From the IMG/VR virus record IMGVR_UViG_2872192773_000009: a stretch of DNA of 24,800 nucleotides; one strand, written 5' to 3'. This document shows positions 8,635 through 16,251 of this stretch, piece by piece. The notes under the pieces are model-generated. The model ran no database searches. It saw only the letters and a list, made by a program, of their open reading frames with translations, and was not told the origin of the DNA. Both the position numbers and the translations under genes were made by a program. This DNA is from a virus (Duplodnaviria; Heunggongvirae; Uroviricota; Caudoviricetes). The first letter of the stretch is position 1; each line of letters starts with the position of its first letter.

Positions 8635-10130
8635 TATGCTGACTCCTCTGAATACTGAAGACGGAACTGGTTAACCACCGCAAAGACACGTAACTGATTA
8701 ACATAATCCGGCGGGAACAGCGTATTCAGTCGGTTCGGGTTATCTGCATCACGCTCAACTATCAGATACTGTTTAAACAGATCGTAATTTTCCACAATAC
8801 CGGCACGCTCCATCTGACGATATGTCGCCAGAAGTTCCCCTTTGATAACGGCAGGAGTGACAATCGCCTGCCCCGGACCAAAACGGGTACCATCATTTGC
8901 CAGCTTGTGACGTCCGTACTTGCTTGTGATGACCGATTTCAGTTTGCGAAGAACATATGCACTGGTATGCAGAGTTTCACTGTCCAGATAGCTGTTGTCT
9001 GCCACGCCATACGCATTCTTTTTGTAGGTGGTTACGGAACGCTGGATCTGCAACGTGCCGCCTTCCACATAAGCCGTCGCCACGCCGTGAGATAAAAGGG
9101 TCTGCTGCTCTGTCATGATGAATCGCTTACCTTTCGGTGCCGGAAGCATCCCCACCAGCTCCCCCGTCTGTGTCGGACGGGCAGGATCATTCCGGATAAA
9201 TACCGCTTCACGGGCAAGGCGACTGGCAACCAGTTCATCGACAGGCGACTGGGTTTCTTTTTCGTAACCGGCAAGCGTGATATGTTGCTGATTATGCATA
9301 TCTCCGGCACCAACCAGCTCTGACAGCGTTCCCAGTTTTGCGGTATAGACATGCCCGTATAACTGGCGCGCATAACTCCAGCGACCGCTGCTGTCATTCA
9401 TTTCGGTCATCATCATATTGATGGAGGCGGCATCGTTGAACGGCAGACCGATAAAGTCGAATGCCTCATCGCCCATAGCAGCAACAGCGGCGGTAAGATC
9501 AGGCGCTCCGCTACCGGCAGCACCGACTTCCGTCACCACCCGAAGCCCTGCTGGCAAAATCTCACCACCACCAGAACCATAATAATTCAGACAGACCGGT
9601 AACTCATTACCATACAGCCCCTTATGACGGGCAGTCAGCGTCACCACGCCTGCATCAGATGACGCCGTAAACGGCAGGGTGATAACCCCGTTTACCGCTT
9701 CCTTAATCGCGGTGGCAACCGCAGTGGCATCATCGCCATTCACCACAGGCACCTGTACACGGGAGCGCCCGACATACAGACTCAGGGTGCCGCTTTCCTC
9801 TGCTTCTCCGGCAACCGTCACCCTGACCGTCGCCGCCGCCCCTCTGGCTTCCGGTACTGCAATAACATACAGTTCACCGAAAGGATCTGTCTGACGGTAG
9901 ACTTCCACCATACGCGCCAGCTGGCTCCCCGCCCCACAAATCTGGCGGGCATAATCTGCCGATGGCATCAGCACCAGGCTGTTAACCTCAATGGCTGCAT
10001 CGTTGCTGGCATGCCCGATCAGTAATGCAGGCGCGCTGGTCACCGCTGTATTTGCCGCAGAATTGTTCATCTCGGCGTAGAACAACGGCACCAGCGTATT
10101 CGACGGAACAGTATTAAAACTTATCGTCAT
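8634..10130 (-). CDS. Phage tail sheath protein (contractile tail)
   Basis: 498 aa; size and gene order (small protein, sheath, tube, chaperone, tape measure) typical of Mu-like or myovirus tail modules. Confidence 0.8.
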   Translation of the reverse strand: MTISFNTVPSNTLVPLFYAEMNNSAANTAVTSAPALLIGHASNDAAIEVNSLVLMPSADYARQICGAGSQLARMVEVYRQTDPFGELYVIAVPEARGAAATVRVTVAGEAEESGTLSLYVGRSRVQVPVVNGDDATAVATAIKEAVNGVITLPFTASSDAGVVTLTARHKGLYGNELPVCLNYYGSGGGEILPAGLRVVTEVGAAGSGAPDLTAAVAAMGDEAFDFIGLPFNDAASINMMMTEMNDSSGRWSYARQLYGHVYTAKLGTLSELVGAGDMHNQQHITLAGYEKETQSPVDELVASRLAREAVFIRNDPARPTQTGELVGMLPAPKGKRFIMTEQQTLLSHGVATAYVEGGTLQIQRSVTTYKKNAYGVADNSYLDSETLHTSAYVLRKLKSVITSKYGRHKLANDGTRFGPGQAIVTPAVIKGELLATYRQMERAGIVENYDLFKQYLIVERDADNPNRLNTLFPPDYVNQLRVFAVVNQFRLQYSEESA

Positions 10131-10288
10131 GATTTTTTAGCCTTATCCTGTTTAACACGTACCACATCACCCGCCGCTATACGGCGGAACCAGTAGCTGC
10201 TTTCTTCCACATTTCGCCCTTCGGAAGGCAAAAGGTCTCCACGGGCAGGGTCAGGAACCGACCGCCCTTTCAGGGGTTTCACAAACAT
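10127..10288 (-). CDS. Small phage protein (53 aa) upstream of the sheath gene, DUF2635-like by position
   Basis: Manually translated: MFVKPLKGRSVPDPARGDLLPSEGRNVEESSYWFRRIAAGDVVRVKQDKAKKS. Its stop overlaps the sheath ATG (ATGA coupling). Not on the ORF track because it is under 60 aa. Confidence 0.45.
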   Translation of the reverse strand: MFVKPLKGRSVPDPARGDLLPSEGRNVEESSYWFRRIAAGDVVRVKQDKAKKS

Positions 10289-10297
10289 GAGGGACTC

Positions 10298-10638
10298 TTA
10301 ATTCTGAGGGAAACGCATTTCCAGATGGTGCTCAATGTCACCATCCGGGCCAGTACCAGGATCGATGTAATCCACATCAATACTCAGCAGGGATAAATCC
10401 GGCAGGGCATTCACGTCCTCTGCCTGTCGCGTGTCTTCTTCCGTGATTTCATACTTCGCCGTAAAATCAAACTGGTAATACAGTTCGTAACGGTTCAGAT
10501 CCAGCAGGGTGCCACCGACATAAACAATCTCGCCCCCTTGCGGGTCCGGCATCCATCCAAGCAGGGCTTTCCAGAGTTCTCTCCGGACATCATGAACGGC
10601 GTCATAGGCTGCCCACTGCCCTTTTTCATCACGCTCAT
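10298..10638 (-). pseudogene. 3' part of a phage structural gene split by IS600
   Basis: Joins in frame with 11903-12128 once IS600 and one copy of the CAT duplication are removed, restoring a 187-aa ORF. The M at 10654 on the track lies inside the IS600 end. Confidence 0.6.
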
Positions 10639-10681
10639 TGAGGTGTACTGGCAATAGCGGACACTACCATTTATTCTTTTT

Positions 10682-11500
10682 TTAAGCAGCCATCTGATGA
10701 TATTTTTCCCTGAAGGCTGCCGGGGAGATATTCCCCAGACGAGAGTGACGACGCTGACGATTGTAGAAAATCTCAATGTATTCCCGTATTACTGAGATGG
10801 CTTCATCCCGGTTATTAAAACGATAGTGGCTCAGGCTCTCATTTTTCAGCGTTCCCCAGAAGCTTTCCATCGGAGCGTTGTCGTAACAGTTACCTTTACG
10901 CGACATTGATGTTTTCAGACCAGACTGCTCCTGTATGACCCGGTAATCGTATGCGCAGTACTGTGAACCTCGATCAGAGTGGTGGATTAGCCCGGCAGGT
11001 GGGCGCTGGCTCCTGAGCGCCATAAACAGGGCTTTACCTGTCAGCTCTTTTGTCATGCGCTCTCCCATGGCGTAGCCGACAATTTCGCACGTATAAACAT
11101 CTTTGATGCCAGCGAGGTACAACCATCCCTCCTGTGTGGCAACATACGTCAGGTCCGCCACCCAGACCTGATTTGGTGCTGTAGGAGCGAACGTCTGGTT
11201 CAGCAGATTTGGCGCAACTGGCAGATTGTGGTTCGGGTTCGTAGTCGCTCTGAACTTGCGTTTCTGCTTACAGCGTAGCCTCAGCTCCTTACGAAGACAT
11301 GCCAGTCGGTCACGACCAACGATGATGCCATTCTCTGCCAGCTCCGTCTGGAGCCGCCGGGTTCCATATGTTTCGCGAGTGCGGATATGTGCCACCTTAA
11401 TCTCCAGTTTTAGCCGCTCATCACTTTGTTTTCTGTCTGAGGGTTCATGCTGTACCCAGTTGTAATAACCGCTCCTGGATACACCAAATACCTGACACAT
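10682..11500 (-). CDS. IS600 OrfB transposase
   Basis: 272-aa IS3-family DDE transposase frame (…HHSDRGSQYCAYDYR…NCYDNAPMESFWGTLK…), the IS600 sequence as I recognise it. Confidence 0.85.
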   Translation of the reverse strand: MCQVFGVSRSGYYNWVQHEPSDRKQSDERLKLEIKVAHIRTRETYGTRRLQTELAENGIIVGRDRLACLRKELRLRCKQKRKFRATTNPNHNLPVAPNLLNQTFAPTAPNQVWVADLTYVATQEGWLYLAGIKDVYTCEIVGYAMGERMTKELTGKALFMALRSQRPPAGLIHHSDRGSQYCAYDYRVIQEQSGLKTSMSRKGNCYDNAPMESFWGTLKNESLSHYRFNNRDEAISVIREYIEIFYNRQRRHSRLGNISPAAFREKYHQMAA

Positions 11501-11535
11501 CGCTTCAATGGGAAATTGTTGTCGCCATTGTTCGA

Positions 11536-11838
11536 TTAACGCGTATTTTTCAGCGACTCCTGTGCAAAATACGCTGTTGCTTTTTTTAATATATCTCGCT
11601 CAAGGCGAGCTTCATTTAACGCCTTACGCAGTTGCAGAATTTCAGATTCCAGTTCAGCCACCGTGCGGGAACCAGGAGTACCGAGCCCTTTTCTGGCGGC
11701 GGTAACCCATTGTCCTAAAGTGCCTTCAGGAAGAGATAATCGGGAAGCGCCTTCACTGATCGAAAGTTGATTTTCAAGAACCGTTCTGACAGCTTCGGCT
11801 TTGAACTCTTTAGAGTAACGTTGGGTTTTTCTGCTCAT
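11536..11838 (-). CDS. IS600 OrfA (helix-turn-helix / leucine-zipper transposase N-terminal protein)
   Basis: 100 aa MSRKTQRYSKEFKAEAVRTVLENQLSISEGASRLSLPEGTLGQWV..., typical IS3-family OrfA. Confidence 0.85.
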   Translation of the reverse strand: MSRKTQRYSKEFKAEAVRTVLENQLSISEGASRLSLPEGTLGQWVTAARKGLGTPGSRTVAELESEILQLRKALNEARLERDILKKATAYFAQESLKNTR

Positions 11839-11902
11839 TATTAGCTCCTTCTGATGCCATTCTATTTCAGGAAGGAGTGTCCGTTAAACTCAGGCTACCT
11901 CA

Positions 11903-12128
11903 CATTGCTGAGCACCACAATCACGGAGAAGCCTTCAGTCAAATCCTGCCAGTAATCGGTCTGTGATTTTTGTTCCCCCGGCGCATCGTCAGAGGGAACC
12001 ACATAGGCAGCAGGCAGGCGAAGTTTTCCGGCATCAGGGATCGCCTTAAACTGCGCCGCGCCACCAACACGCTCCTCAAAACGCGGGCATCGCTCACGCA
12101 GTGCCGCAATTATCGTTGTCAGTTTCAT
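11903..12128 (-). pseudogene. 5' part of the phage structural gene split by IS600 (tail completion or Mu gp37-like by position)
   Basis: Starts MKLTTIIAALRERCPRFEERVGGAAQFK...; its ATG overlaps the stop of the upstream gene (ATGA). The reading frame is cut by the IS600 end at 11902. Confidence 0.55.
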
Positions 12129-12649
12129 TTATGCTTCCTTTTTACCGGACGTAACGAACGCTGCAGCTCACGGGACAACAGTTCCTGCGTCCAGTGACGC
12201 CGACGCTCAATAACGTCAGCCATAAAGTTATTACGCGGGGCCAGCCGGAAAGTCGAAGAATGGTGCTTCTTCTGCCGCTTATCCTTTTTATCCATTCCAT
12301 ACGCTGAATGGCGAACGCCGTAATACAGAAACGCCGGATAATAAGGAGCACCTTCAGGAAAACGGCGATTCCCCTGCCCGTTTTTCTGGTCAGGGGAAAT
12401 TTTCACCATCAGTCCGGGGCGACGCGTCGTTTTTTTGGGAACGTAATAACCAATGGAGCGGGCCAGACGCCCGGTCTGATATCCCGGGTTCTCTCCCGGA
12501 CCGGAGCGTCCGCGTTTAATCACCAGACGTCTGGCATCACGCATGTAAACGCGCCCGATTTGCACAAACGCCCGACGCAGACGGGCGCGATTAAACTCCA
12601 GCTCCTCTGGTTGTTTAAAGTCGACGTGTAAAAATGCTGTCTGATTCAT
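12125..12649 (-). CDS. Phage head-tail joining protein (HK97 gp10-like, tentative)
   Basis: 174 aa from the ATG at 12649 (the track ORF starts further upstream at 12688). Basic protein between the head-tail adaptor and tail genes, translationally coupled on both sides. Family assignment is by position only. Confidence 0.4.
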   Translation of the reverse strand: MNQTAFLHVDFKQPEELEFNRARLRRAFVQIGRVYMRDARRLVIKRGRSGPGENPGYQTGRLARSIGYYVPKKTTRRPGLMVKISPDQKNGQGNRRFPEGAPYYPAFLYYGVRHSAYGMDKKDKRQKKHHSSTFRLAPRNNFMADVIERRRHWTQELLSRELQRSLRPVKRKHK

Positions 12650-13031
12650 GGCATTCACCCCGTCGTCGCGCTGTACGCAGTTCTTCACATTCCAGTAATA
12701 AAAAACGCCGCTGACCGTTCAGGTCACGTATTCGCCGGATCCGGTACTCTTGGCCGTAATAAACCACTTCGTGATCTGCCGTGATGTCGTGCCGGAAACG
12801 GATCGTAAAATAATGCGTAACGATATTTTCTGTCTGCACTGAGCCCTGATAAGCGGCAGCGCCTGGCTGAGCCACCTTTGCCCAGACATCAAACGACTCC
12901 GGATACGTTGGCTCCGTACCAAAATCAGCGGTGGGTTCATCCACACGAAGGCGGATCTTTATCCGGCGATTCAGCTCTCCGGGATCCGGTAAAAGGTAAG
13001 TGGCACTGGTCTGACTTTGCCTGATTTTCAT
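12615..13031 (-). CDS. Phage head-tail adaptor / head closure protein
   Basis: 138 aa from the ATG at 13031. Pattern ...RRIKIRLRV...YYGQEYRIRRIRDLNGQRRFLLLECEE resembles the head-tail joining family as I recall it. ATG overlaps the stop of the upstream connector gene. Confidence 0.55.
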   Translation of the reverse strand: MKIRQSQTSATYLLPDPGELNRRIKIRLRVDEPTADFGTEPTYPESFDVWAKVAQPGAAAYQGSVQTENIVTHYFTIRFRHDITADHEVVYYGQEYRIRRIRDLNGQRRFLLLECEELRTARRRGECHESDSIFTRRL

Positions 13032-13351
13032 AGCGGGACAATCCTGTAAGGGCCAGCAAGCCATCTGAAACTCATTGGCGTTTCCAGTTTCTCCACATCG
13101 GTAATCGTTGAGCGATTTTCATAAAAATGACTGACCAGCATCAGCATTGCCAGACGAACGTCATCAGTCAGATGCATCCCGTCAGGATCATCTTCCGGAA
13201 TCGTCTCTTCCGGTGCATACAACTTCCTGTTCAGGTATGTCTCTGTTTTTTTCTGTACCGCCTGTGCCAGCAGTTTCAGAAAATCGCCGTCACTGTACAA
13301 ACCATCATCGAGCCGGAGATGAGATTTAATCTCCTCTTCTTTCAGGAGCAT
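13028..13351 (-). CDS. Phage gp6-like head-tail connector protein
   Basis: 107 aa MLLKEEEIKSHLRLDDGLYSDGDFLKLLAQAVQ..., resembling the gp6-like connector family. AGGAGG ribosome-binding site upstream. Confidence 0.55.
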   Translation of the reverse strand: MLLKEEEIKSHLRLDDGLYSDGDFLKLLAQAVQKKTETYLNRKLYAPEETIPEDDPDGMHLTDDVRLAMLMLVSHFYENRSTITDVEKLETPMSFRWLAGPYRIVPL

Positions 13352-13441
13352 ATTTTCCTCCTGTGCCCGCGATTACGCGGGCACAAAAAACCGCATTACG
13401 CAGCGGCTTTCTGGCGGGTTGCAGCCCCAATTTTCATCAGC

Positions 13442-14317
13442 TTAATCGCCTGAGAATCCACCAGCATACCGCCGGTTCGCTTGGTGGTATAAAAACCCAC
13501 GAACGGTGTCATCTGCGTGCACCTTTCCTGCCTCCAGAACATAGTCATTCAGCGCTATATACAGAGGACGGAGTTTGTCTGCCATTTCTGATACCCAGCG
13601 CACCATGGTATTACGGCTCAGCTCCACGCCCTGTCGCGCGTATATTTCTGACTGGCGATATAAAGGGATATGTTCCATATATTTGCTGACCAGGATCCGT
13701 GCAAGTAACCCTGCACTGGCATAACCGCGTTCGATCGGTTTAGGAGGAAGTGGTGCCTGAACGATGACATCACACCGGCTACAGGCCAGTTTGGGACGTA
13801 TGGTTTCGATAACTTTAAAGGCGGTATTAATGATATCCAGTTGCTCTGAGATTGTTTCCCCCATTTCTTTCAGAACACCTCCACAGGCCGGGCAACTGGT
13901 TTCAGCAGGCAGAAGGCGATGTGTCTCCCGGGGAAGTTCTGCCGGCAGCGGTTTTCGTGAAGATTTTCGTCCCGGGAATTCAGGCTTACTGGCGATCGGG
14001 TTTTCTGACGGGGGACTGGTGTCAGGTGAATCTGTGACTGACGATGCATCTTCCAGAAGATTTCTGGCTGTGTTCAGCCGGTTTTCCAGTTCCGACAGTC
14101 GTTTTTCTGCCTGTCGGATCTGATTTTCAAGCTTATGACGCTTTTTCTCTGAACTCTGGCCGAACAACATACGACGCAACCTGTCGAGTTGCGCTTTCAG
14201 CCGTTCAATTTCCTGCTCATAGCCCGCGACCTGACAGGCATACTGTCGAAGCCGACTCTGTTGCTTACGCAACATGGCTTTAAGCAGCTCAATATCATCG
14301 GGGAGTTCATTGTTCAT
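13442..14317 (-). CDS. IS66-family transposase TnpC, 3'-truncated (ends just after the first catalytic HADDT)
   Basis: N-terminal coiled-coil and zinc-finger region (CPACGG...CSRCD) and ...GKVHADDT as in IS66 TnpC, then an unrelated tail and stop. Full TnpC is about 520 aa; 291 aa here. Confidence 0.7.
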   Translation of the reverse strand: MNNELPDDIELLKAMLRKQQSRLRQYACQVAGYEQEIERLKAQLDRLRRMLFGQSSEKKRHKLENQIRQAEKRLSELENRLNTARNLLEDASSVTDSPDTSPPSENPIASKPEFPGRKSSRKPLPAELPRETHRLLPAETSCPACGGVLKEMGETISEQLDIINTAFKVIETIRPKLACSRCDVIVQAPLPPKPIERGYASAGLLARILVSKYMEHIPLYRQSEIYARQGVELSRNTMVRWVSEMADKLRPLYIALNDYVLEAGKVHADDTVRGFLYHQANRRYAGGFSGD

Positions 14318-14664
14318 TCCCTTGTTTTATCACGGGTTATATCCGGATGCCAGGCCGTTCTGTCCGTTTGGGATGTTGCCACGCGATCCCCTCCAGTAGC
14401 ATGGATAACTGAGCTGGCGTCAGGTGCACTTTCCCTTCCCGGGTCACCGGCCAGACGTTTGGCGAACAGGCATAACCCGTCACGATCGGCCCACAGTATT
14501 TTCACCATTTTGCCACTGCGGCCCCGGAAGACGAAGATATGCCCGGAGAACGGGTCATCTTTCAGCGTGTTCTGCACCTTCGAAGCCAGGCCATTGAAGC
14601 CACAACGCATATCTGTGATGCCAGCGATGATCCAGATTTTGGTACCGGTCGGCAGCGTTATCAT
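14314..14664 (-). CDS. IS66-family TnpB (Orf2)
   Basis: 116 aa MITLPTGTKIWIIAGITDMRCGFNGLA..., the canonical IS66 Orf2 as I recognise it. Confidence 0.8.
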   Translation of the reverse strand: MITLPTGTKIWIIAGITDMRCGFNGLASKVQNTLKDDPFSGHIFVFRGRSGKMVKILWADRDGLCLFAKRLAGDPGRESAPDASSVIHATGGDRVATSQTDRTAWHPDITRDKTRE

Positions 14665-15335
14665 CGGATACCCCCTTTCATTTCGCGGATTAGCGCCCGT
14701 AACAGTTCCGGAGTGAGAGGGTCAAACAGTTTTACCACACCTGATTTAAGATGCAGCTCGCACCGTGGGACGTTTCCGGGAGCCCCCTCAGGGCGCTCAT
14801 CATGCTTGTTACGCCAGAAGGGATTTGTAACTGGTCTGGTCGGCTCCGGCGTATCAGTCAGTGCCACCGGGACAGGCATGCATTCCTGTATGTCATCATC
14901 GCTCAGTAAGCCGTCCTCGTACTGGCTTTTCCATTTAAACAGCAGGTTATCATTGATATCGTGTTCTCTGGCGATCCGGGCAACAACAGCCCCAGGCTGT
15001 AACGCCTGCTTAGCCAGACGGACCTTAAATTCACGGCTATAGCTGGTTCGCCGTTCTTTTCGCCATGAGCCTTCTCTGATTTGAGGCTCTGTTAATTCCT
15101 TCTTTCTGTTGGCATAAAGGATGGCGTCAAGTTGAGCGAATGAAACTGAATCGGGCAATGGCCATGCGATACCGGATGCAAGAAATCGCTGAAAAAGCGT
15201 ATGTATTGTGGAATGACTGAGACCCAGACGCTGAGCGATGGCCCGGATGGTCAGTTTATCTTCAAATCTTAAACGCAGGGCATCAGGCAAATAAGAACGG
15301 AAGCAGGGAATATCTTTTGTTGTCTGGGAATTCAT
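14661..15335 (-). CDS. IS66-family TnpA (Orf1, helix-turn-helix protein)
   Basis: 224-aa ORF with a helix-turn-helix segment (LTIRAIAQRLGLSHSTIHTLFQRF), immediately upstream of and overlapping tnpB. Confidence 0.65.
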   Translation of the reverse strand: MNSQTTKDIPCFRSYLPDALRLRFEDKLTIRAIAQRLGLSHSTIHTLFQRFLASGIAWPLPDSVSFAQLDAILYANRKKELTEPQIREGSWRKERRTSYSREFKVRLAKQALQPGAVVARIAREHDINDNLLFKWKSQYEDGLLSDDDIQECMPVPVALTDTPEPTRPVTNPFWRNKHDERPEGAPGNVPRCELHLKSGVVKLFDPLTPELLRALIREMKGGIR

Positions 15336-15417
15336 CGTTCGTGTCCATCAATATAGATGGGCGCGATTGTTGCCAGACAGGACAATTTTCACAAGACGTC
15401 GCTGATGGGGCGCTTAC

Positions 15418-15941: not shown

Positions 15942-16016
<75 letters not shown>

Positions 16017-16019
16017 ATA

Positions 16020-16095
<76 letters not shown>

Positions 16096-16097
16096 AC

Positions 16098-16174
16098 TGG
16101 ACCGCCACCGGGGACTCGAACCTCGCACACTCAACTTAAAGGGTTGACGCTCTTTCCTGATGAGCTAGTGGCGG
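16098..16174 (-). tRNA. tRNA-like gene, nominal anticodon UUU (Lys) with atypical C33; possibly degenerate
   Basis: 77 nt CCGCCACTAGCTCATCAGGAAAGAGCGTCAACCCTTTAAGTTGAGTGTGCGAGGTTCGAGTCCCCGGTGGCGGTCCA. Perfect acceptor (C1-G72), D and anticodon stems; TTCGAGT T-loop; anticodon loop CCUUUAA; A.C mismatch in the T-stem. Confidence 0.45.
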
Positions 16175-16175
16175 T

Positions 16176-16251
16176 TGGTGGCCCTTGCTGGATTTGAACC
16201 AGCGACCTGGCGATTATGAGTCGCTCGCTCTCACCACTGAGCTAAAGGGCC
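16176..16251 (-). tRNA. tRNA with CAU anticodon, ileX/ileZ-like (tRNA-Ile2, or elongator Met)
   Basis: 76 nt GGCCCTTTAGCTCAGTGGTGAGAGCGAGCGACTCATAATCGCCAGGTCGCTGGTTCAAATCCAGCAAGGGCCACCA; close to E. coli ileX as I recall it. Confidence 0.7.

Follow-up and report, generated by a model that had tools for sequence, protein, structure and literature searches.

An IS600 insertion shared among Shigella flexneri strains splits the tail terminator gene of a cryptic phiP27-like prophage bounded by ipaH

The window, i.e. the whole 24,800-nt stretch of virus-assigned DNA analysed here (IMG/VR record IMGVR_UViG_2872192773_000009), shares a 20,234-bp stretch of 100% identity with LR213452.1 (locus L004), which is S. 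flexneri AUSMDU00008355 (PMC9376355). It carries a phiP27-like prophage bounded by tRNA-Ser(CGA), integrase and mtfA (20392-22440) and by a gene for an ipaH E3-ligase effector (1311-2954). Positions 7130-10640 and 11903-13507 are collinear with the phiP27 morphogenesis module at 96.6-97.5% identity. The genes of the module run on the minus strand in the order connector, head closure, Neck1-like, terminator, DUF2635, sheath, tube, chaperone and tape measure, which matches the gene order of phiP27 and E. coli prophages. The terminator thus lies between the head-completion/neck genes and the sheath/tube genes of a contractile-tail module, and in the window it is split by a complete insertion sequence. 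The features around the split gene are as follows.

13028-13351, minus strand: head-tail connector
12615-13064, minus strand: head closure
12125-12649, minus strand: upstream tail completion/Neck1-like gene, 174 aa by public gene calls
12125-12128, minus strand: ATGA stop/start overlap of the Neck1-like gene and the terminator, read from the sequence
11903-12128, minus strand: terminator 5' fragment, codons 1-75 and the first base of codon 76
11903-11905: right target-site duplication CAT, read from the sequence
10639-11902: complete IS600 (IS3 family), 1264 bp, transposase genes on the minus strand, identified by match to RefSeq-annotated copies
10636-10638: left target-site duplication CAT, read from the sequence
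10298-10638, minus strand: terminator 3' fragment, remainder of codon 76 to the stop
10127-10288, minus strand: downstream DUF2635 small protein (PF10948, E = 7.9e-19)
8634-10130, minus strand: tail sheath, intact (PF04984, PF17482 and PF17481)

The open reading frame of the upstream gene extends back to a GTG at 12688. Its product matches phrog_879, “tail completion or Neck1 protein” (E = 2.5e-83), and gene L42 of phiP27 is annotated alike. The four-nucleotide ATGA overlap between this gene and the terminator, already pointed out in a preliminary description of the locus, is conserved in annotated relatives, being present in E. coli FDAARGOS_944 and between genes L42 and L43 of phiP27. An AAGGAAG Shine-Dalgarno-like motif lies 5 nt upstream of the terminator ATG. 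The overlap suggests that translation of the terminator may be coupled to that of the Neck1-like gene.

The inserted element begins with TGAGGTGTACTGG at 10639 and finishes with GGCTACCTCA at 11902, so that its ends have the form TG...CA (TGAGG at the start, CCTCA at the finish). In a megablast search of 5426 complete E. coli genomes it matches features annotated as “IS3-like element IS600 family transposase” over its full length at 99.6-99.8% identity, the best RefSeq-annotated copies reaching 99.8% across positions 1-1264. The preliminary description had named the element as an IS600 of 1264 bp, and both the name and the coordinates prove exact. Its left boundary is also marked by a truncated further copy of IS600 at 3611-4517 of the window, which in a self-BLAST begins to align precisely at 10639, and both boundaries are marked by full copies elsewhere, which align with 10639-11902 over the whole length. 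The internal features of the element are given below.

11876-11902: terminal inverted repeat at the orfA end, from a repeat search
11536-11838, minus strand: orfA, 100 aa, HTH_Tnp_1 (PF01527, E = 1.5e-20)
11580-11587, minus strand: A7G slippery motif between orfA and orfB; motif located, fusion reconstructed
10682-11500, minus strand: orfB, 272 aa from ATG, rve DDE integrase core (PF00665, E = 8.6e-26)
10639-10665: terminal inverted repeat at the orfB end, from a repeat search

The two inverted repeats are 27 nt long and imperfect (70% complementary), and OrfB is additionally matched by PF13683 and PF13333. In the IS3 family the DDE transposase is an OrfAB fusion produced by programmed -1 frameshifting. 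A -1 shift made in silico at the A7G motif gives an open OrfAB fusion of 385 aa, the length of the public gene call in L003 and L004, and by analogy with the family the site is expected to direct such a shift in the cell. The element shares with the IS600 copies of Shigella and E. coli genomes its 1264-bp length, 99.6-99.8% identity, TG...CA ends, imperfect repeats, A7G motif and 3-bp duplication; it shows no difference of substance from annotated copies and is one further genomic copy of what is among the most frequent IS elements of S. flexneri (PMC4226921).

Joining 10298-10635 to 11903-12128 restores a gene of 564 nt, i.e. 187 aa plus a stop codon. Its product, the restored protein, shows 100% identity with WP_000779449.1, annotated as “phage tail terminator protein” and encoded by a 564-nt gene of E. 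coli FDAARGOS_944, and the two gene halves show no amino acid difference and one synonymous nucleotide difference from this intact allele. The preliminary description had held that the pre-insertion allele could be identified exactly from the window, and this natural protein bears it out. Gene L43 of the Stx2e phage phiP27 (NC_003356, 28627-29190) is likewise 564 nt long, and its product differs from the restored protein at three amino acids. L43 and the WP_000779449.1 gene share the ATGA overlap and the gene order with the window; L43 is intact, while its counterpart in the window is split by IS600.

The restored protein matches PF23840 (Phage_tail_terminator) over residues 3-141 with 105.1 bits (cutoff 27; E = 4e-30). 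What had been described as a tail gene is, on the basis of Pfam and synteny, specifically a tail terminator, the name that RefSeq also uses. PHROGs gives the full-length family the label “portal protein”, and a PDB sequence search for a solved homologue returned only a chance match (E = 0.035). The insertion point lies within codon 76 of the 187 codons, and since this codon is inside the matched residues, IS600 splits the PF23840 domain. The 5' fragment runs into the element and ends as a product of 77 aa (11895-12128, ending SN-VR), whereas gene callers extend the 3' fragment to a TTG at 10654 inside the element, giving an open reading frame of 118 aa. These two chimeric products are handy exact-match signatures of this one insertion. 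Judged from the family assignment and synteny, the split would abolish tail-terminator function, such that the prophage could not cap tube and sheath and complete its contractile tails, and polar effects on the downstream tail genes are likely.

Uninterrupted relatives define the target site independently of the window. The junction GCTCATTGCTGAG is identical in the restored gene, FDAARGOS_944 and phiP27. A 1000-bp restored junction aligns without gaps to FDAARGOS_944 (999/1000) and to phiP27 (975/1000), the latter being its sole match in the phage collection (two records of the same genome), and the uninterrupted locus is found, again by ungapped alignment of this junction, in 51 of the 5426 complete E. 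coli genomes. Empty sites hold only one CAT, and comparison with them shows that no flanking base was lost, in agreement with the simple insertion with a 3-bp CAT duplication that had been proposed. The repeat at the insertion is formally 5 nt, CATTG, as the two bases after the right CAT match the start of the element, and for this reason alignments to empty sites overlap by 5 nt. The length of 3 bp is set solely by the canonical IS600 termini and is formally ambiguous within CATTG. The in-frame join carries little weight as evidence, given that removal of the element plus 0, 3 or 6 extra bases leaves an equally open frame in every version.

The preliminary description suggested searching Shigella and E. 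coli genomes for the uninterrupted gene, and held that its reading should be rejected if relatives had another junction sequence or joined the halves out of frame. The exact 187-aa sequence occurs on 362 contigs of a large protein collection, some of them named S. flexneri, and the uninterrupted locus occurs in the 51 E. coli genomes and in S. flexneri SFL1520. All 11 of the fetched uninterrupted near-identical loci (L001 and L013-L022) contain the predicted 43-nt empty site exactly, and the reading of the junction thus withstood the check.

One of these loci belongs to S. flexneri itself: L019 is CP032513, identified as strain SFL1520 of serotype 3b through PMC6424224. It has the empty site in an orthologous prophage, with ipaH, methyltransferase and DUF4376 genes in a flank collinear with that of the window, which places the origin of the insertion within the diversification of S. 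flexneri. It could be argued that the empty site of SFL1520 is secondary, IS600 having been lost either through its precise excision or when recombination with an intact prophage replaced the locus. Precise IS600 excision is documented where an IS-excision enhancer (IEE) is present (PMC9397093), and the ipaH side of the SFL1520 locus is 99.5% identical to the window when other S. flexneri loci are about 99.9% identical. However, the empty allele is also that of phiP27 and the 51 E. coli genomes, so that retention of the ancestral state in SFL1520 is the simpler explanation, and we regard a secondary origin as distinctly unlikely.

The filled junction, by contrast with the empty one, was found in none of the 5426 complete E. 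coli genomes. Partial matches that run 9-18 nt beyond the end of the element in E. coli were considered and rejected as evidence of a shared insertion, these being the extremes among 6602 IS600 places. Within S. flexneri the filled site is widespread. The right junction was found on ten loci (L003-L012), and both junctions are present in the independent complete chromosomes L003, L004, L006 and L042. Short-read assemblies do break at this element, and a 74-aa contig-end version of the stub accordingly appears on 395 contigs; nevertheless, the occurrence of both junctions in four complete chromosomes and of the right one on ten loci makes misplacement of IS600 by a repeat-collapsing assembler a negligible prospect.

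The distribution of the two chimeric products gives a broader view. An exact copy of the 77-aa stub occurs on 340 contigs under the name S. flexneri, and one of the 118-aa fusion on 269, for example as SFxv_2265 of S. flexneri 2002017; the contig names include S. flexneri K-218, S. flexneri 2002017 and generic S. flexneri, and cover many strains and serotypes. This distribution bears on the one part of the preliminary description that did not hold, namely that the transposition was probably recent. In favour of a recent, essentially strain-specific event, the duplication is intact, the gene halves are unmutated (no amino acid and one synonymous nucleotide difference) and the element looks fully functional. 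Against it, the chimeric products occur on hundreds of contigs, the insertion is common to loci that differ by later deletions, and a target of 564 nt is too short for the absence of decay to have any dating power. At strain level the recent event is refuted, and overall we hold it to be highly improbable. The “clean” appearance of the insertion means that it has not yet recombined in the lineage of the window, rather than that it is recent.

A wide distribution could also result if several lineages of S. flexneri had independently acquired IS600 at this CAT, and members of the IS3 family can indeed show target preferences. But all filled loci agree in position, orientation and duplication, and their IS600 copies are 0-2 bases apart (identical in L004 and L006, with one or two bases different in L003 and L005), whereas the neighbouring IS600 copy in the same strain differs at five positions. 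Furthermore, none of the 51 E. coli genomes that have the target gene carries an insertion there, even though many are rich in IS600. A hot spot is therefore exceedingly unlikely. The identity of position, orientation and duplication, along with the near-identity of the element, argues instead, at the level of sequence comparison, for a single ancestral event. The insertion is internal to S. flexneri, yet widely shared.

The prophage in which it is found is a cryptic remnant. It does not amount to a complete, inducible phage genome: the window has no capsid, portal, terminase, lysis or baseplate genes, and the terminator is split. Two further IS-rich segments occupy the places of missing genes:

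13508-15417, minus strand: truncated IS66-family element (IS66 orf1, TnpB and a truncated DDE domain by Pfam)
3611-4517, minus strand, same orientation as the complete copy: second IS600, truncated by IS1 (4513-5281), 99.78% identical over 907 bp in a self-BLAST

The IS66-family element stands in place of the lysis, terminase, portal, protease and most capsid genes of FDAARGOS_944, and positions 14106-22324 of L001 have no counterpart in the window. The IS1 and the truncated IS600 occupy the place of baseplate and fibre genes. Compared with phiP27, the prophage is thus without baseplate, head, packaging and lysis genes, but carries ipaH. Between Q and holin, where phiP27 carries stx2e, no open reading frame of 90 aa or more is present in the window. 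In these respects it resembles the prophages of the S. flexneri “ipaH islands” (named in PMC4226921 and PMC6424224), which are likewise cryptic, with a chromosomal ipaH, many IS1, IS600 and IS66-family elements, and deletions that vary from strain to strain.

Comparison among S. flexneri loci with the insertion shows one fuller state of the region and three that derive from an ancestor of that kind. The fullest is that of CP026871 (L003/L036), in which the interrupted terminator is found together with the whole head and lysis module. The insertion is therefore older than the deletions that removed these genes in other strains. The same locus has a second clean IS600 within orf3 of the IS66 element, in the same orientation and with its own 3-bp duplication, CTC. 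In the state represented by the window, the 3' part of IS66, the second IS600 and the genes from lysis to capsid are gone, and the IS66 remnant abuts the capsid remnant at an IS-free junction (13507/13508), which lies 2-4 nt from the site of the second IS600 in L036.

The state found in strains 301, 2457T and Shi06HN006 lacks the equivalent of window positions 11903-13505, and a single IS600 remains. Its flanks are mismatched, CTC facing IS66 and CAT facing the terminator, and since mismatched duplications are the signature of homologous recombination between two copies, the locus is best explained as the product of recombination between IS600 elements. The IS66-side flank equals that of the IS66 copy in L023, L033, L034 and L037 (the four strains in which this junction reads cleanly), and the terminator-side flank equals that of the terminator copy in seven of seven loci. 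By diagnostic SNPs the 3' 530 bp of the hybrid element are terminator-like; the 5' part has few diagnostic sites and is weakly informative. That L036 contains the required second IS600 supports this origin. Derivation of the 301 type from the window type through an IS600-adjacent deletion was also considered, and is rejected on the grounds that 4-6 nt of IS66 survive in the 301 type but not in the window.

In a further state (L005/L040), window positions 4518-10638 are deleted, and L005 retains one IS600 with the flank seen at 3599-3610. This deletion is a recombination between the terminator copy and the truncated copy at 3611-4517. The insertion is older than at least three subsequent deletions mediated by IS elements, one of them being the loss of the 5' half of the gene in 301 and 2457T.

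The origin of the IS-free 13507/13508 junction is more speculative. Excision with deletion of flanking DNA is a known outcome of the IS-excision enhancer in STEC, and one could read the junction as the scar of such an excision of IS600. This would imply an IEE-like deletion activity, or one driven by transposase breaks, and the terminator insertion might also have been kept because crippled tail assembly helps to lock ipaH in the chromosome. We consider this proposal unlikely. If true, IEE-like or transposase-break deletion would have shaped prophage decay in S. flexneri beside plain homologous recombination.

Nothing in the data contradicts the core reading of the insertion. With little room for doubt, a single IS600 transposition into codon 76 of the tail terminator gene of a phiP27-like ipaH prophage took place once, in an ancestor within S. 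flexneri, and the element has since acted as a recombination block. The prophage is integrated at tRNA-Ser(CGA) beside mtfA, and in that ancestor it still possessed its head and lysis modules. The DDE transposase was presumably made as OrfAB through the -1 frameshift, and the element would have moved by the copy-out/paste-in route, with its circular intermediate, of the IS3 family. A staggered 3-bp cut of the target, once repaired, would give the CAT/CAT flanks with no loss of host bases. What the insertion leaves of the gene is a 77-aa N-terminal stub and a C-terminal fragment with no promoter of its own. The event probably followed the split of the lineage of SFL1520 (serotype 3b), and its bearer was ancestral to much of S. 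flexneri. Thereafter the inserted copy served as a portable block of homology: recombination with the second IS600 in the neighbouring IS66 deleted the head module and the 5' half of the terminator (301, 2457T and Shi06HN006), and recombination with the truncated copy at 3611-4517 took out the tail genes that were left (L005 and L040). Between these stages stands the window, which has kept both junctions, and this is why its gene can be restored exactly in silico.

A comparable case is the lacZ gene of STEC O121:H19, which is interrupted by IS600 and is precisely restored by IEE-mediated excision (PMC9397093). In both, a simple insertion inactivates a gene whose exact restoration is conceivable; excision itself is documented for lacZ. 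IS-driven prophage decay in Shigella is already known, the features discussed here are annotated in public genomes, and ipaH islands and their associated cryptic prophages have been described (PMC4226921, PMC6424224). In literature searches we found no paper on this particular insertion, on the stepwise series of junctions or on a link between phiP27, ipaH and IS600.

For the gene itself, the result is a pseudogene with an exactly recoverable ancestor and the name tail terminator, which is little beyond bookkeeping. The locus is of more use as a teaching example of how one IS insertion can seed later deletions, as the same IS600 is clean in the strain of the window, flanked by mismatched duplications in 301 and 2457T, and responsible for the loss of tail genes elsewhere. 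To type S. flexneri lineages cheaply, one could use the filled, empty and recombined forms of the junction as markers.

The two IS600 copies of the window (3611-4517 and 10639-11902) are direct repeats on either side of what is left of the tail genes, a stretch of about 6.1 kb, and exactly this segment is gone from at least two complete genomes (loci L005 and L040), a loss that is due to recombination between the two repeats. In strain CP026871, this prophage has an additional IS600-like copy (98.97% identical; locus L003, 8097-9359) within its head-closure gene, at a point that corresponds to window 12765-12769; the window is without that copy.

The IS600 that adjoins the 3' fragment of the tail-terminator gene is flanked by target duplications that do not match, CTC on one side and CAT on the other, in 2457T (L023), 301 (L026) and Shi06HN006 (L025), at about locus position 1151. 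Four further loci (L033, L034, L037 and L039) are of the mismatched 301/2457T type, and window 11903-13505 is absent from loci of the 301/2457T/Shi06HN006 type. The mismatched element is the product of recombination between one IS600 and another, and therefore the terminator gene is not restorable from those genomes. One or two extra bases vary at the junction (GAGT in 2457T, AGAGT in 301 and AGGAGT in Shi06HN006), differences that may be sequencing errors of older assemblies.

The join at window 13507/13508, where the truncated IS66-family element meets the 3' end of the capsid gene, is itself free of IS sequence and shows an AC microhomology. CP026871 carries a clean IS600 with a CTC duplication inside orf3 of the IS66 element, at a site 2-4 nt from this join (compared with locus L036, 13600-14900). 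It looks as if that IS66-borne IS600 was lost along with some 8 kb of the phage DNA beside it.

When the 187-aa terminator product, restored in silico by removing IS600 and one CAT, is compared with PHROGs, phrog_10113 matches residues 1-78 only and phrog_5122 residues 79-186 only. The existence of these two partial families suggests that split copies of the terminator were deposited piece by piece, each as a phage protein of its own. The family that spans the whole length is phrog_209, whose PHROGs label, "portal protein", conflicts with both the Pfam assignment (PF23840) and the position of the gene.

The other features of the window are as follows, with Rfam matches accepted at the gathering score:

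44-247, minus strand, IS009 (Rfam)
327-995, methyltransferase gene flanking ipaH
1004-1183, minus strand, CssrB, a chromosome-encoded Shigella sRNA (Rfam, 230 bits), immediately upstream of ipaH
1311-2954, plus strand, IpaH-type effector of 547 aa (LRR and NEL E3 ligase), at the prophage's tail-fibre end
3134-3748, DUF4376 tail-fibre remnant flanking ipaH on the other side
15942-16251, minus strand, four phage-borne tRNA genes (Gly-TCC, Thr-TGT, Lys-TTT and one with a CAT anticodon), with the Q antiterminator on one side and the holin on the other
19152-19327, minus strand, sok antitoxin RNA (Rfam), adjoining the hok/gef gene (about 19002-19214)
20392-21549, prophage integrase, adjoining tRNA-Ser(CGA)

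The CAT-anticodon tRNA is named Met by ARAGORN and Ile by RefSeq. In the window, no ORF reaches 90 aa in the interval from the Q antiterminator to the holin, which is where stx2e lies in phiP27. Past mtfA (window 22541-24040) come a tRNA-Asn and then another ORF of the integrase family (23291-24040), shorter than the first; this second ORF probably marks the border of another island.

Most relatives with an uninterrupted terminator (L001, L014-L018, L020 and L021, all labelled E. coli) share the same insertion of ISEc60, an IS4-like element, in the sheath gene, and a second ISEc60 insertion, in the portal gene, is often present among them. The IS element that inactivates this prophage thus differs from lineage to lineage.
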